Origin: Syntrophobacterales bacterium
GTDB taxonomy: Bacteria > Desulfobacterota > Desulfobaccia > Desulfobaccales > 0-14-0-80-60-11
DNA: 64,000 bases
Direction of reading: 5' to 3'
Assembly: GCA_020060385.1 (NCBI GenBank)
Contig: JAGVAH010000044.1
Location: forward strand, 7,235 to 71,234
In this document: positions 9,181 through 37,001 of the stretch, one piece after another
How positions within the stretch are numbered: the stretch's first letter is position 1
Layout: each line of letters starts with the position of its first letter
Notes under the pieces: generated by a model
What the model was told of the DNA's origin: nothing
What the model saw: only the letters and a program-made list of their open reading frames with translations
Databases searched by the model: none
Made by a program: the position numbers and the translations under genes

Positions 9181-9271
9181 ACGGCACCCAGCTTTCTTGA
9201 TCCCAGGGGGGCCGGGGTCTACGACCCCGGAGGAGCCCTCAAGTCCCTGCCACGGGGACCCGGGCCTTAAC

Positions 9272-9434
9272 AGATGGGCAGGTCTTCTGACTTCCGGATC
9301 ATCCTCATCCCTGCGCCTTCCCGTTTCCTTCAAAGAAACAGTGGCTTATCGCAGGTTTCGTCCCCGGTTACAGCGGCGGGACCGTGCCGGCTTTCAACCG
9401 GCTTCCCTATTAAACCCCACTGGGGGTACCCATC
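9272..9434 (-). promoter_or_regulatory. Cobalamin (B12) riboswitch
   Basis: Minus strand has AATAGGGAAgccggTTGAAAgccggCACGGTCCCGCCGCTGTAA, GCCACTG, GGGAAGG and B12 box AGTCAGAAGACCTGCC. Confidence 0.93.
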
Positions 9435-9532
9435 TTTTCTAGGTATACAGCATAAGGGGAACCCCCGCCCCTGTCAAGGGAAAATCCGCCCCTTTGGGGC
9501 CTGATATCCGGCCCGGGACCATGGGGCCCCCA

Positions 9533-25756: not shown

Positions 25757-25796
25757 AACCGCCAACCCTGGTCAGATTATTGGGGCAGTGCGGCTC

Positions 25797-26714
25797 TCAG
25801 GCCACCACCGCCCAGGCAAAATGGGCATGTTCGCAGGCATGATAGCCATCTGTACGCCCCCGGAAAAAGCGCTCCTGGATCACCTCCGGGCCCAGATTCT
25901 CCCGGAGGCGCAGGCCTTCTCCGGCCAGGTCCCCCTCCAAAGCCCCGGGAGCCAGGCCGGTGATCATGGGCTCCCCCACCCGGCTGACAATCTCCATCAT
26001 GATTTGCACCCGCCGGGAGACCCTTGCGGGCACGAAGGCGTCGGTATCCAGATAATCGAAGACGACCCCGCTGCCCGGGGGCGCTGCCTCGCTGATGGCC
26101 CGCCAGGTGCTGAACAACGCCTCCCGGGGCAGGTAATAAGTCACCCCCAGCCAGCTAAAAAAGGTGGGGACCCGGGGGTCAAACGGGGAGCGCCTCAGGG
26201 CCGCGGCCAGATGATCCCGGCCGAAATCCACCGGCAGGAAGTGGAGGTTTCCCGGCGGCTCCAGGCCCGCTTCCCGGAGGCGCTGGCGCTTATGGGCCTG
26301 GGTGGCCGGATGGTCGATCTCGAACACCCGGAGTTGCGCCAGCAGGTCCGGGCGCCGCCAGGCAAAGCTGTCCATCCCCGCGCCCAGGATCACATACTGC
26401 CTGGCCCCCTGGCCCACGGCCTGCTCCAGGAGGTCTTCCGTGTACCGGGCATGGGCCAGGACGATGGCGGGCGCGCCGGCGATGGCCATCCAGCAGGCCA
26501 GGGCCCCGGCCCGCTGCGGATAGGCCGCAGCCAGGTCCGGATAAAATACCTGCAAGGCCCGGAGGTGCCGCTCCTCGCTGGTCCGGTATTCTTCCACAGT
26601 CAGCAAGCGCTGGGCCAGAGGATCTTCGAAGATGGGGGGCTGGACATGGGCCGCGTGGTAAGCCCGCATGAACGCGGTGCCCATGGCCGTCCTGCTATAT
26701 TCGCCGCTTTGCAT
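25797..26714 (-). CDS. SAM-dependent methyltransferase (leucine carboxyl methyltransferase-like family)
   Basis: SRTA...A..RA; FEDPLA; QYVILGAGMDS; FEIDHPATQ; WLGVTYYL. Confidence 0.9.
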   Translation of the reverse strand: MQSGEYSRTAMGTAFMRAYHAAHVQPPIFEDPLAQRLLTVEEYRTSEERHLRALQVFYPDLAAAYPQRAGALACWMAIAGAPAIVLAHARYTEDLLEQAVGQGARQYVILGAGMDSFAWRRPDLLAQLRVFEIDHPATQAHKRQRLREAGLEPPGNLHFLPVDFGRDHLAAALRRSPFDPRVPTFFSWLGVTYYLPREALFSTWRAISEAAPPGSGVVFDYLDTDAFVPARVSRRVQIMMEIVSRVGEPMITGLAPGALEGDLAGEGLRLRENLGPEVIQERFFRGRTDGYHACEHAHFAWAVVA

Positions 26715-26794
26715 GCTTCACCTTGGGTTTCTTGGGTAAGCCGGTTTCCTTCGTGCCCGAACCAGCCTTGGGCACAAGACCTATCATCCCTATT

Positions 26795-27181
26795 TTATTT
26801 AAGAAATTCCCTATAAAGTTTCTTGGCGCACTCAGGACAAATGCCATGGGAAAACTGCAAATCCGATTTTCCGGAGATGATTTGTTCGAGGCTGACCCAA
26901 TGACCATTTAATTCCTTAACCTTTTTGCATGAACCGCAGATTACCATGAACCCTTCCAGGTACTTGATCCTATTAATAAATTGCCAGGTCCAGTAAACCG
27001 TTATACTGCCGATGATGAGGATGCCTGCGGTTTCGATTAGGACCTGTCTTAAGTTGAATGGGGGATCAAAGTATTCGGTAAGCCAACAGGTCAAAATGAT
27101 GAATAAAAATCCAATAATCTCAAAGACTAAAGCCATTTTCAGGGCGCGGGTCTTAGATAATTCCTCTCCAGGACCTGTCAT
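26795..27181 (-). CDS. Small two-TM protein with a C-terminal Cys/His motif domain
   Basis: Two hydrophobic helices, then ICGSCKKVK...W...FSHGICPEC; AT-rich. Confidence 0.75.
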   Translation of the reverse strand: MTGPGEELSKTRALKMALVFEIIGFLFIILTCWLTEYFDPPFNLRQVLIETAGILIIGSITVYWTWQFINRIKYLEGFMVICGSCKKVKELNGHWVSLEQIISGKSDLQFSHGICPECAKKLYREFLK

Positions 27182-27418
27182 CGGCCTATCCTCATGTTAT
27201 GTCTAATTATTTTTCTTTAAACTCCCTTACAGGGCCAATGGTTTAAAAGAGACACAAATGCGTATGCCGACATATTCTGCCTGATTTCCTTATAAAATTC
27301 AAATGGCTTGCCAATTCTCATCCAGGCCGCCTCTTTTCCTATTTTCAAGGAATTCTTTTTAACCACGCTCCCTCCCCTCCCCCTTGCTTTCTCCCTGATG
27401 ATGCTTACTAGTATAATT

Positions 27419-27789
27419 GCCGGGAAGTTCAGTCCCAGCACCATAGGGGTTAGGGGTAGGCGGCTTGAGGCCGGGCCCCGAAGGGTAGGGCCGCCCGCGG
27501 GATTGAAACTCTAGGCGATCTGCTTCGGTTAAGAGCAACAGCCGGTCCGGCCCAAATTTAACCAGGCCCGGCTGGGCGCTGATTGCCGGTAGCGGCAATG
27601 GCTGCCGGCTCTGCGGCGGAAGCAGAGGCAGTGACCACGGAACCAGAGACGTAAGATTGAGTCCGGCGTTACTTTCCCCTTTAAAGGTGGAAAGAGGTTT
27701 CGTGGAGTGGGGAAGACCGGGAATTCCGGATGGTTGTAATTAGTTAAGGAAGTATCCATCCGGATTCCCGGCTTCCCTTTCGCCTTTTT
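27419..27789 (+). ncRNA. Putative structured ncRNA of unknown class, copy 1
   Basis: No credible ORF; at least six helices conserved with copy 2; promoter-like TTGCTT...TAGTATAAT upstream; long 3' hairpin with a pyrimidine/U tail. Confidence 0.7.
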
Positions 27790-27978
27790 GCCCCAGTTTT
27801 TTCCCGCATACCCCAAATTCCCCGGCGAACTGGGAACGCCTCATCAGTCCAAGTCTGTGGCACCATCGCCTCTCTCCGGGGGCCCCGGACCCGCGTCATT
27901 CTGCCGCTAGCAATTTTTTTCCAAAAATTTTTTCCCTCCCCCCTTGTTTTTCTCCCAAGGATGTTTACCAATATATGA

Positions 27979-28350
27979 GCCGAGACAATCAGTCCGGGCG
28001 CCGGCAAGGTGAACGGGAGACGACCTGCGGGTCGCACCCTAAAGCGGGTGGAGGGTCGCTCGCGGGACTGAAGGTCATGGCAACCTGCTTCGGCCCCGAG
28101 CAACAGCCGGTCCGACCCAATTAACAACTAGTGGCCGGCTGGGCGCTGATCGCCGGCCGCGGCGATAGATGCCGGCTCCGCTGCGGAAGCAGAGGCAGTA
28201 GCCACGAAACTTCGGGACGTAGTTAAGAGCCCGGTGGCGCTTCGCATCTGGCGGAGAGCAGGGTTTCGTGGACCGGGGAAGCCCGGGCAGCCCGGCTGGT
28301 TTACCTCCTGGAGAGGACAACCCCGGGGCCCGGCTTCCCCTTCTCTGTTT
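27979..28350 (+). ncRNA. Putative structured ncRNA of unknown class, copy 2
   Basis: Paralog of copy 1 (offset about 560 nt) with compensatory and wobble-consistent substitutions and a similar upstream region. Confidence 0.7.
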
Positions 28351-28579
28351 GGCCCCTGCTTTATTCCCCCTCAGGAAAATCTCCTCCGGAAGAAATCTCC
28401 CCCCAAGACTTGATGAATCCGGGCCAGGATTAATCACCAGCGCCTCGGGGGAAATGCAGAAATAGAAAAACCGTAAATCATTTCCAATTCTTATGACAAT
28501 TGGTATAACTGGGCAGCATGCAGTCCGGGGTGTGGAGAAGGGCCTCTCTCTACCCCAAACCACGGATTAACGGAGCCTG

Positions 28580-29128
28580 ATGATGACGCCCGAGAAAACC
28601 CTGCCCCCGCCTGGCTGGCGCTTTCATCTGGGTATGGCCTTAATTATCCTGGCTTTAATAAGCCCCCTGGCCATTCCCCTGGTAACCCTGCTGCCCTTGC
28701 CCCTGGCCTGGAAGGCCACCATCTCGGGTTTCCTGCTGGTGGGCGTCCCGGAGGTCCTCAGCCTGCTGGCCGTGGCCTTACTGGGGAAAGCCGGATTCAA
28801 CTATCTCAAGGAAAAGATCTTCAGGATTTTCAAAAGATACGCCTTGCCCCAGGAGGTCAGCCGGGCTCGTTACCGTCTGGGGCTGGTCATGTTTATCCTG
28901 CCGTTGTTCCTGGGCTGGCTGGGAGCCTATGTCTTCCACCTGATCCCGGGCTATGCCGAGCATCGGTTTGTCATCAATTTTACCGGGGATGTCATCTGGC
29001 TCTCCAGCTTGTGGGTGCTGGGCAGCGATTTCTGGGACAAGGTGCGGGCCCTGTTTATCTACCAGGCCAAGGCGGTGCTCCCCCAGAAGGAGGCGATTAA
29101 CGTTACTATCCCGGGGCCGGGCTCATGA
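28580..29128 (+). CDS. Four-TM membrane protein ('transporter suffix' domain-like)
   Basis: GVPEV...AVALLGKAGFNYLK; SLWVLGSDFWDKVRALF. Confidence 0.75.
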   Translation: MMTPEKTLPPPGWRFHLGMALIILALISPLAIPLVTLLPLPLAWKATISGFLLVGVPEVLSLLAVALLGKAGFNYLKEKIFRIFKRYALPQEVSRARYRLGLVMFILPLFLGWLGAYVFHLIPGYAEHRFVINFTGDVIWLSSLWVLGSDFWDKVRALFIYQAKAVLPQKEAINVTIPGPGS

Positions 29129-29294: not shown

Positions 29295-29352
29295 TCGGCG
29301 GGCGTCCCGCCCGCCCCTTTAAGGCGCACAGGCTGGAAAGCCTGTGCCACCA
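29295..29352. repeat. REP-like palindromes
   Basis: ggcgggcgtcccgcccgcc and gcacaggctggaaagcctgtgc hairpins; a related element lies at 59692-59757. Confidence 0.65.
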
Positions 29353-29370
29353 ACTTTTCAGGACAGAACA

Positions 29371-30312
29371 ATGGCCAGACCTTTCTGGCTGTCAGAGGCG
29401 CCTATGGAACGGAGGGAGTTTTTGCGGCGGCTGACCCTGGGGCTGGCTGCGGGTTGGGTGGGGGGACGGTGGTGGTGGCCTGCTTCAGCCCGGGCAGGGC
29501 CACCGGGGCTGCGCCTGGCCCTGTTGGCCGACGCGCATCTCCTGGACGGCGATGCGCGCCGGGCCCCGGCCCGGGCCCTGGCCCGGGCGGTGGCGGAGAT
29601 TCGCTCCCTGCGCCCGGCCCCGGATTTGGTGCTCTTCGCGGGGGACCTGGCTCATGACGGCAATCCCCGGGCCCTGGCCATGGGGCGGGAAATCCTTACG
29701 GACCTGCCCGGGTCCCTAGTTGCGGTGAGGGGTGAAGGAGACGGGGCCGCGGCCTGGATCCGCCTCTTTGGGGAGGACCGCTTCTCCCGGTCCTATCCGG
29801 GCTTCCATCTTCTGGGGCTGCATACTGCCCTCACTGCCTCGCCCCAAGGGCCGGTCTTTGAGGTGGGAAAAGAGCAGCGCGGCTGGCTGGCCGGGGAACT
29901 GGCCCGCCTCGACCCTGCTACCCCCCTGGTGGTGCTCTCCCATGCGCCGCTAGACAAAATCTTCCGACCCTGGGGGCAATGGACCCGGGACGGGTCGCAG
30001 GTCATGGGCCTTTTGTCCAGATTTCCCCGGGTTTATTGCTTCCACGGCCATGTGCACCGAGCAGCTGACAGCTTTCAGCTTGCAGCTTTCAGCCATGACT
30101 TGATGGGGCCTGATAATTTATTTCTTACGGAAAACCGAAAACCGCAAACCGAAAACCATCCTCTACCGGCCACGGCCTGGCCTCTCCCCTCCCCTCTCCA
30201 AGGCACCCCCGCCGCGCCCGGCCCCGGCCTGGGGCCCCAGGGCTGCGGCTGGGGCTTGGCGTCTCTGGGGGGCGAGTCCCTGGAATATCACCCCCAATTG
30301 TGGCAAGCGTGA
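29371..30312 (+). CDS. Tat-exported metallophosphoesterase-family protein, partly degenerate
   Basis: RREFL twin-arginine signal; LADAH; AGDL; LSHAP; FHGHVH. The GNHD/GEHD motif reads GEGD. Confidence 0.75.
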   Translation: MARPFWLSEAPMERREFLRRLTLGLAAGWVGGRWWWPASARAGPPGLRLALLADAHLLDGDARRAPARALARAVAEIRSLRPAPDLVLFAGDLAHDGNPRALAMGREILTDLPGSLVAVRGEGDGAAAWIRLFGEDRFSRSYPGFHLLGLHTALTASPQGPVFEVGKEQRGWLAGELARLDPATPLVVLSHAPLDKIFRPWGQWTRDGSQVMGLLSRFPRVYCFHGHVHRAADSFQLAAFSHDLMGPDNLFLTENRKPQTENHPLPATAWPLPSPLQGTPAAPGPGLGPQGCGWGLASLGGESLEYHPQLWQA

Positions 30313-33559: not shown

Positions 33560-36760
<3,201 letters not shown>

Positions 36761-37001
36761 GGGACATCCTCCTGGAGGGGACGGGGAATAAGCGGACCTT
36801 AACTGGCGGAAAGCCTGGGGAGGAATATAGGCAAGGCCGGTGGGAGTGTCAACACAAAGATTTAGTTTTAATAAAAATTATCCTGATATTACAGTTTTAA
36901 TAATTGATGCCCTGAGGTCCATCAGATTAAGGAAATTTGTTTAGGGTTTTAAATCATAAGCTTTACCGAGTGTCAGAAATAATTGCGCATAAGCAAATGG
37001 G

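Follow-up and report, generated by a model that had tools for sequence, protein, structure and literature searches.

Two diverged copies of a candidate large structured RNA gene in a gene-free gap of a Desulfobaccales genome

The locus described here raises the question of what is specified by a gene-free gap of ~1.4 kb, flanked by a 128-amino-acid (aa) open reading frame (ORF) at 26795-27181 (-) and a 182-aa ORF at 28580-29128 (+), in a 64,000-nucleotide (nt) stretch of a Syntrophobacterales bacterium placed by GTDB in the order Desulfobaccales (GenBank assembly GCA_020060385.1, contig JAGVAH010000044.1, positions 7,235 to 71,234; the whole of this stretch is referred to as the window, and all coordinates are its own unless a contig is named). 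A reading of the sequence alone (hereafter the original prediction) had placed a tandem pair of structured noncoding RNAs (ncRNAs) in this gap. The analysis presented below favours, with a probability of roughly 0.6, the reading that the gap carries two paralogous genes for an uncatalogued structured ncRNA of ~370 nt that is stand-alone, trans-acting and lineage-restricted. Considered separately, the existence of a real family of stand-alone structured RNA genes is very probable and action in trans rather than as a cis leader is likely, while a protein-binding or regulatory role, rather than a catalytic or ligand-sensing one, is tentatively proposed by analogy and at somewhat less than even odds.

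The gap holds two diverged but related copies of ~370 nt each, at 27418-27790 (+) and 27983-28352 (+), with a mean column identity of 81%, and ~50 nt upstream of each copy can be aligned as well. A BLAST search of the 4.15-Mb genome returned these as its only copies, the remaining 34 matches having E > 0.2. Both are predicted to fold with unusual stability, as the minimum free energy (MFE) was -181.9 kcal/mol for copy 1 (z -5.69) and -191.5 kcal/mol for copy 2 (z -3.31), and in neither case did any of 100 shuffled sequences fold as well. All sequence elements quoted in the original prediction were located where it had put them: the helix formed by TTCAGTCCC (27428-36) and GGGATTGAA (27499-507) in copy 1 and by TCAGTCC (27989-95) and GGACTGA (28065-71) in copy 2; the pairing of CTGCTTC with GAAGCAG (27520-26 with 27619-25, and 28086-92 with 28186-92); the hairpin ATTGCCG-gtag-CGGCAAT (27582-99) and its copy-2 counterpart (28149-66); the CCACGGAACC/GGTTTCGTGG pairing; and the long 3' hairpins (27709-27777 and 28275-28340) with their U-rich tails. 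The features of the two copies are listed below, together with their matches to R1, a 188-position covariance model built on the central domain and the three-way hairpin.

27345..27417, +, promoter-like block of copy 1: A/T-rich stretch, C-run, -35-like TTGCTT (27384-27389) and conserved GATGCTTA
27406-27417, +, -10-like candidates of copy 1 read from the sequence: TACTAG (27406-27411), TAGTAT, and TATAAT (27412-27417)
27418..27790, +, RNA copy 1, ~373 nt, from MFE fold, R1 match and covariation; both ends predicted
27418-27519, +, copy 1, 5' domain
27488..27492, +, copy 1, 5' half of the pseudoknot, GGGCC in a 5'-domain hairpin loop, pairing with 27549-27553
27518-27708, +, R1 match of copy 1, 177.8 bits
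27520-27625, +, copy 1, central multi-helix junction closed by CTGCTTC/GAAGCAG
27549..27553, +, copy 1, 3' half of the pseudoknot, GGCCC in the loop of the central domain's long hairpin
27635-27706, +, copy 1, three-way hairpin CCACGGAACC...GGTTTCGTGG
27709-27777, +, copy 1, terminator-like hairpin, with U-rich tail at 27778-27789
27915..27982, +, promoter-like block of copy 2: A/T-rich stretch, C-run, -35-like TTGTTT (27944-27949) and GATGTTTACCAATATAT
27983..28352, +, RNA copy 2, ~370 nt, central domain at 28086-28192
28053-28057 and 28114-28118, +, copy 2, pseudoknot halves GGGTC and GACCC
28083-28274, +, R1 match of copy 2, 175.5 bits
28275-28340, +, copy 2, terminator-like hairpin, with tail to about 28350

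Separately, a weak third match (26.6-26.8 bits) occurs elsewhere in the genome, on contig C140 at 83051-83226 (-), which corresponds to L178:1501-1676. It resembles the three-way hairpin only and is situated just 3' of a tRNA gene and a terminator-like hairpin; it was not counted as a copy and may be a fragment or a chance match.

The predicted architecture begins with a closing helix, UGCC/GGCA, in which a CG pair is replaced by UA in six copies, followed by a long helix, GUUCAGUC/GACUGAAC, that leads into a three-hairpin junction. The central junction, closed by CUGCUUCGG/CCGAAGCAG, contains a GAGC/GCUC pairing, a long hairpin and the hairpin GGCGCUGAUUGCCGG...CGGCAAUAGAUGCC, and is connected by a linker to the three-way hairpin closed by CCACGGAAC/GGUUUCGUGG; the RNA would end in a long GC-based terminal hairpin and a U-rich tail. 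Unpaired junction nucleotides are highly conserved, and the terminator stem is unusually conserved in sequence.

Compensatory changes in these helices were counted in three alignments. RNAalifold applied to 22 full-length copies gave 83 pairs, 22 of which show changes on both sides. For the central domain and its adjoining hairpin, 55 copies aligned to R1 gave 40 pairs that are 92.3% paired, as against 31-47% when the pairing partners are slid; 21 of these pairs are compensatory, and none of 500 shuffles reached the observed values. The whole RNA was evaluated on alignment A6, made with MAFFT from 39 of the 53 full-length copies; the other 14 (L068-L081), divergent members from three genera with a truncated or different central hairpin, were not included. 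Following a poor RNAalifold consensus on A6, the MFE structure of copy 1 was projected onto it and the pseudoknot added; with this structure, 81.3% of cells were paired across 133 pairs against 33-48% in slid controls, a comparison of paired cells that favours a structure derived from one of the aligned sequences, and 67 of the pairs are compensatory. The weakest parts are the outermost two pairs, helix 12 (62%), in which the linker pairs with the 3' tail, and those variable hairpins that lie further inside, which differ between paralogues while the core is kept. The pairings listed in the original prediction are thus conserved with compensatory changes across 39-55 homologues.

Additionally, a pseudoknot was identified that had not formed part of the original prediction. 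The loop of the third 5'-domain hairpin carries GGGUC, which can pair with GACCC in the loop of the central domain's long hairpin; over A6 (columns 101-105 with 171-175) these five base pairs are 96.9% paired, and three of them are compensatory. Variants include GGAUC:GAUCC in six copies, GGGUU:AACCC in one and GGGGU with GCCCC in two, with G-U intermediates in several others, and copy 1 of the window itself carries a double change, GGGCC:GGCCC, relative to the GGGUC:GACCC of most copies. The contact also fits 20 of 32 further distinct metagenome copies, and one more if a one-base shift is allowed; the copies that do not fit are mostly of the divergent type with a shortened central hairpin, in which the contact seems to be absent. 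The 5' alignment comprised 52 of 53 usable stretches (the weakest match, L081, was left out), and L063, which contains N's, and one copy at a contig end were omitted from the 5'-domain and metagenome pseudoknot counts. A search of A6 for further pseudoknots gave only weak candidates of 5-7 bp without covariation. The covariation shows a predicted 5-bp loop-loop pseudoknot that would clasp the 5' domain to the central domain, and such a compact fold with a long-range contact is what would be expected of an RNA whose shape is its function. Together with the covariation of the listed helices, it upholds the proposal of two paralogous RNAs under structural selection.

Each copy is self-contained, being preceded by a conserved promoter-like block and closing at its 3' end with a GC-rich hairpin and a U-rich tail. 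The upstream block precedes 52 of the 53 copies, the exception being again L081, and consists of an A/T-rich stretch, a C-run, CTTG(T/A/C)nTT and then GATGnTTAnTAATAT just before the first helix; its consensus may also be read as A/T-rich sequence plus CCCC..CTTG..GATGnTTAnTA. From the conserved -35 TTG to the best -10-like hexamers, which are non-consensus, the distance is 16-19 nt. The covariation of the first helix points to a transcription start just upstream of UUGCC, near 27418 and 27983. Nine other sites in the genome share CCCTTG-N15-19-ATGnTTA (CCCTTGAC-N15-19-ATGnTTA), and in five of them the C-run is followed by CTTGAC. Such sites (for example on C14, C80, C124 and C169) have the order C-run, CTTGAC, 15-19 nt, (G)ATGnTTA and then TAnnAn. 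To judge from its sequence, this shared form suggests the ordinary promoter of the lineage, and may represent a housekeeping promoter consensus in which the spacing or the -10 element departs from the Escherichia coli rule. The original prediction had noted a resemblance to a sigma-70 promoter; the upstream block is conserved, and a strict sigma-70 scan made no call at the expected place. The proposal that the two RNAs are independently transcribed agrees with the presence of a promoter-like block and a terminator-like end at each copy, both here and in the 52 other copies for which sufficient upstream sequence exists.

Related sequence is also present in an RNA library. In a metatranscriptome that was the sole public run found to contain part of the stretch (share of sampled words 0.04), 33 contigs could be aligned to the locus, four at >=99% identity, one at 95-99%, 11 at 90-95% and 17 below 90%. 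These contigs are confined to 27464-27750 and 27997-28324, with word depths of up to about 4000, and none was found in the flanks or in the 190-nt spacer of the locus in the same run. The pattern is compatible with abundant transcripts of the RNA and its relatives.

The distribution of the family was explored with blastn, with R1, with a model rebuilt from 55 diverse copies (R2) and with a model of the 5' domain (R3), which holds only 12 base pairs and is hence close to a sequence profile. Homologues were detected by blastn in 16 of 61 relatives, including eight of eight genomes of the genus, with one to three copies each. R1 was positive in 42 of the 69 genomes of the family; by genus (numbered g1 to g14), these were g1 (8/8), g3 (17/18), g9 (11/15), g12 (1/1), g11 (2/4), g10 (1/2) and g5 (1/4, weak), and R1 found none in g14 (0/8), g2, g4, g6, g7, g8 and g13. 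R2 and R3 were each positive in 44 of 83 genomes of the order, and six genera of one family account for all matches bar one or two that are weak or located at the end of a contig. R1 matched one of the 14 sister-family genomes (G045); this match, which abuts a contig end and comes from an assembly with 4% contamination, was rejected as a sign of wider spread. An even sample of the phylum contained no R1 or R2 match in 146 genomes outside the family. A degenerate pattern run against one genome per prokaryote species returned 74 stretches, of which 25 loci (31 matches) were confirmed by R1 and the other 49 were chance matches in unrelated phyla. The confirmed loci bear titles such as Desulfobaccales, Desulfobacca, Thermodesulfobacteriota and 'Deltaproteobacteria' or belong to similar metagenome-assembled genomes (MAGs), in agreement with Desulfobacterota as the lineage named in the original prediction. 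In metagenome contigs the same pattern gave at least 34 loci (38 matches) confirmed by R2, among 80 of 107 stretches; it recovers 29 of the 55 known copies, and both pattern scans therefore undercount. One carrier, G026, is a single-contig assembly. Within the collections searched, the RNA family thus appears to be confined to one family of Desulfobaccales.

Tandem copies recur in G001, G004 and G067 and on four metagenome contigs. In a quick maximum-likelihood tree, which was midpoint-rooted and carries no support values, copy 1 joins one of the copies of G002 and one of those of G008, the other copies of these two genomes group with copy 2 and with G005, and the genomes with three copies form matching groups. 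Because the copies fall into shared paralogue clades, the duplications would predate these species, and the retention of the paralogues therefore implies that each copy is useful.

The genes that follow the pair on the same strand are as follows.

28580..29128, +, 182-aa membrane protein with a 'transporter suffix' domain (NCBIfam NF033684, 56.7 bits), listed as context only
29344..30312, +, calcineurin-like metallophosphoesterase (Pfam PF00149), a conserved same-strand neighbour at 19 loci, not tied to the RNA

Homologues of the membrane protein follow the last RNA copy at four loci, and a 182-aa ORF occupies the same place in G006. At the 19 loci the phosphoesterase gene comes after the last RNA copy on the same strand, and at some of them a gene for a small membrane protein intervenes. 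Of the 69 family genomes, 54 have the phosphoesterase, among them all eight of one genus without the RNA; in another genus the RNA precedes genes for ADP-forming acetyl-CoA synthetase and MoeA, and the phosphoesterase lies on other contigs. In two species (L036 of G003 and L035 of G006) three copies are spaced ~2.5 kb apart in the same gene order, separated by a convergent gene for a 550-570-aa spermidine-synthase-like protein with a methyltransferase domain and by a gene for a dCache-type chemoreceptor. The neighbours seen at the loci included chemoreceptor, spermidine-synthase-like membrane protein, P-type ATPase, Pirin, HisB, BrnT-family ORF, acetyl-CoA synthetase, MoeA and HflX, and a given copy precedes another copy, a convergent gene or one of several unrelated genes (chemoreceptor, phosphoesterase or ADP-forming acetyl-CoA synthetase). 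As a side observation, in one genus the RNA gene adjoins a divergent ORF for a BrnT-family ribonuclease toxin (L072:5442-5882 (-), PF04365, 87 bits; also at L069, L073 and L075). In the window itself, long ORFs overlap on both strands at 25788-26816 (+)/25797-26714 (-) and at 33575-36802 (+)/33560-36760 (-); Pfam backs the minus-strand members (leucine carboxyl/SAM methyltransferase and carbamoyl-phosphate synthase large chain, respectively), and their plus-strand partners look like shadow frames of GC-rich genes.

To establish whether the RNA belongs to a described class, the 4227 models of Rfam 15 were run in gathering mode over the whole window and in E-value mode (E up to 10) over 27200-28580. 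In gathering mode the only match in the window was a cobalamin riboswitch, with none at the RNA pair; this riboswitch (RF00174) is full-length, at 9260-9448 (-), and scores 127.1 bits. E-value mode gave 15 noise matches of at most 21.7 bits (the best against a gathering score of 96), most of them microRNA hairpin models placed on the 3' hairpin. The original prediction had recognised no class, and the absence of any Rfam family at gathering score bears this out, leaving no confident match to remove the novelty. In the excerpts covered of the literature on noncoding RNA in Desulfobaccales and Desulfobacca and of the large-ncRNA and intergenic-region (GC-IGR) screens, among them those of 26 and of 50 genomes, the RNA is not described, although the supplementary tables of those screens could list it; the sole paper found on structured ncRNA in Desulfobacca is, in the portion covered, concerned with known riboswitch clusters. 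As far as searched, this is an undescribed family of large structured RNAs.

Several points weigh against a pair of stand-alone, trans-acting RNA genes. The transcript and its ends are predicted from sequence, and a protein partner is proposed by analogy, no conserved RNA-binding protein or other partner having been found among the neighbours. A strict scan for sigma-70 promoters and terminators calls neither signal at the expected places; the hexamers depart from the consensus, and the length of the 3' hairpin exceeds what the terminator model of the scan permits. The 55-copy alignment was fitted to R1 and leans towards that structure, and related copies are not independent, so that the shuffle controls overstate the support. 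The expression data come from one run and consist of contigs only, giving neither ends nor strand; most of these come from relatives, which can match only the conserved parts, and carry-over of DNA is possible. Finally, about two thirds of the copies have a same-strand gene downstream, at 19 loci the same phosphoesterase, as would be the case if the RNA were a large, riboswitch-like cis leader whose ligand-binding domains control the 3' hairpin as a conditional terminator for the downstream gene. The compact junction-plus-pseudoknot fold is riboswitch-like, the terminator stem is conserved in sequence to an unusual degree, and the phosphoesterase is faintly similar, far under the cut-offs, to cyclic-nucleotide phosphodiesterases. 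However, a full promoter block precedes every copy, including the tandem ones, whereas tandem riboswitches are known to lie within a single transcript; a convergent gene faces some of the copies, and others precede only another copy; and the downstream genes are mutually unrelated, with 230 nt separating copy 2 from the next start codon. The RNA is missing from all eight genomes of one genus that have the phosphoesterase and is unlinked to it in another, and at eight phosphoesterase loci in RNA-negative genomes the upstream neighbours are short protein-coding genes and the RNA models gave no match (at most 9.5 bits). A scan of the conserved columns of A6 for an antiterminator gave only repeats of 5-7 bp of the CCGG and GAAGC type, and none of their pairs showed as many as three pair types. 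That the RNA is an obligate phosphoesterase leader was rejected, given that the gene occurs without the RNA in one genus and is unlinked to it in another, and a cis leader of any kind is considered unlikely. The promoter block at each copy and the neighbour data therefore favour a stand-alone, trans-acting RNA over a leader.

Such an RNA could still differ in what it does. One proposal is that it stands in for 6S RNA, as Ms1 does in mycobacteria, as an abundant RNA polymerase-binding RNA whose paralogues serve different states, and paralogous 6S genes are known in other bacteria. The strong-looking promoter block with its A/T-rich upstream element and the high word depth of related contigs in the RNA library would fit this, as would the failure of RF00013 to detect 6S RNA anywhere in the 69 genomes of the family, except that this model is of low sensitivity and found only five of 14 controls. 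Conversely, the fold consists of multi-helix junctions and a pseudoknot rather than a rod with a central bubble, and the models did not find the RNA in 25-27 of the family's 69 genomes (8/8 of one genus), which are also without detectable 6S RNA; because of this the two RNAs are not complementary in their occurrence, and we regard a 6S stand-in as improbable. Little more can be said for a ribozyme, or for a self-assembling RNA-only particle of the kind recently reported for ROOL, GOLLD and OLE. The size, the many junctions, the conserved unpaired junction nucleotides and the long-range loop-loop contact are shared with large ribozymes and ornate RNAs (for the latter, PMC12286853), but no substrate, cleavage-site logic, mobile element or phage context was recognised at the loci, and Rfam gave no match to any ribozyme or ornate RNA; this reading is accordingly quite unlikely. 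A broader version, also unlikely, is that of a new ornate RNA class with a function of its own, acting as a ribozyme or forming a particle alone or with a dedicated protein, which would have arisen in a single family of the sulfate-reducing Desulfobaccales before dividing into two or three specialised paralogues that keep the pseudoknot-clasped core and vary their outer hairpins for different targets. Lastly, the locus might contain no RNA gene and represent either a short protein gene on the minus strand or a repeated or mobile DNA element. Stop-free stretches of 64-136 codons do exist on the minus strand across the 39 copies, and the translations of these antisense ORFs cluster by BLASTP. 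However, the codon phase at ten conserved columns varies from copy to copy, the lengths of most gap runs are not divisible by three (652 leave a remainder of one, 197 of two and 148 of none), substitutions are compensatory across helices, and there are only two copies in this genome and at most three elsewhere, in syntenic places. Protein coding was rejected in that no long ORF of the gap is conserved in frame. A miniature inverted-repeat transposable element (MITE) or an RNA associated with insertion sequences (HEARO, omega RNA) was likewise rejected on account of the one to three syntenic copies with housekeeping neighbours (HflX, CarB and HisB), and phage and plasmid collections held no match to the RNA. 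Neither reading is seriously credible. The observations that the original prediction had named as decisive came out in its favour: no Rfam match, compensatory changes among homologues, no conserved coding frame, only two genomic copies, neither phage nor plasmid matches, and related sequence in one RNA library.

If the reading as a pair of stand-alone, trans-acting RNA genes is correct, each copy would be transcribed from a housekeeping-type promoter and end at its own intrinsic terminator, and the RNA would accumulate as a stable, abundant species. By analogy, it may act in trans through its tertiary fold, most likely by binding a protein partner, either in a ribonucleoprotein or by sequestering a regulator, and the variable hairpins of the paralogues might tune its specificity. 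Complex, conserved tertiary folds are rare among bacterial RNAs of more than 300 nt, and the RNAs that possess them, such as RNase P RNA, group I and group II introns, OLE, ROOL and GOLLD, have time and again proved to have unusual biochemistry. The present RNA is a clean candidate of this large-RNA type, with a defined gene structure, strong covariation that includes a pseudoknot, retained paralogues and signs of high abundance in an environmental RNA library, in a little-studied host group of acetate-oxidising and sulfate-reducing bacteria. Being restricted to a narrow lineage, it is of limited general importance; it could readily be added to Rfam and would improve the annotation of these MAGs.

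Comparison with known systems begins with the housekeeping RNAs. RNase P RNA of type A is similar in length, and AGUCYGRGCWCC near the 5' end looks alike by eye, but there is no colinear similarity with the RNA pair: when the copies were compared by BLAST with RNase P RNA from this genome and with the transfer-messenger RNA (tmRNA) of a relative, only scattered pieces of 11-34 nt in inconsistent order were obtained. RNase P RNA (RF00010) was rejected as an identity, the RNase P models having no match here and the canonical copy of this genome being located elsewhere (G000:C56:1053-1416, 323.1 bits). For tmRNA (RF00023), also rejected, ARAGORN found no tRNA or tmRNA in the window and all five relatives have a canonical tmRNA (188-193 bits) at other loci; neither RF00023 nor ARAGORN detected tmRNA in the window's own assembly, which is 99.95% complete, and the argument thus rests on the relatives. 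Two of these five are of the same genus, and the tmRNA gene of this genome probably falls in an assembly gap. 6S RNA (RF00013) was rejected in view of the multi-branched predicted fold and with no match either in the region or, at E up to 1, in the genome, and the 6S RNA of the lineage is either too divergent for the model or missing. The RNA pair shares with 6S RNA and Ms1 a predicted stand-alone gene with a strong-looking promoter block and a terminator-like end, paralogues and apparent abundance in an RNA library, and differs from them in not being a rod with a central bubble and in being missing from many genomes of the same family.

Closer in general character are the large RNAs OLE, ROOL, GOLLD, raiA and HEARO, which are likewise long, highly structured RNAs in their own right with a patchy phylogeny and a function that is unclear or partially understood; their Rfam models had no match at E up to 10 over the 1.4 kb. 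ROOL, GOLLD and HEARO occur in a phage or mobile context, which was not found for the RNA pair, and OLE has associated membrane proteins as conserved partners, whereas no conserved partner protein was seen here and the 182-aa membrane protein occurs only at few loci. The nearest parallel by description is the smtA motif ('Soda Lake RNA'), reported, in the part of the source covered, as a candidate ncRNA of more than 350 nt from Thioalkalivibrio in a screen of 50 genomes (PMC11109978). It is set apart by that description, in that the lineage differs and smtA is linked with a methyltransferase gene while the RNA pair has no constant partner gene. In the same account, the smtA motif, which has no assigned function either, resembles the RNA pair in its complex multi-stem structure with covariation, its narrow lineage and its ordinary gene neighbours (PMC11109978).

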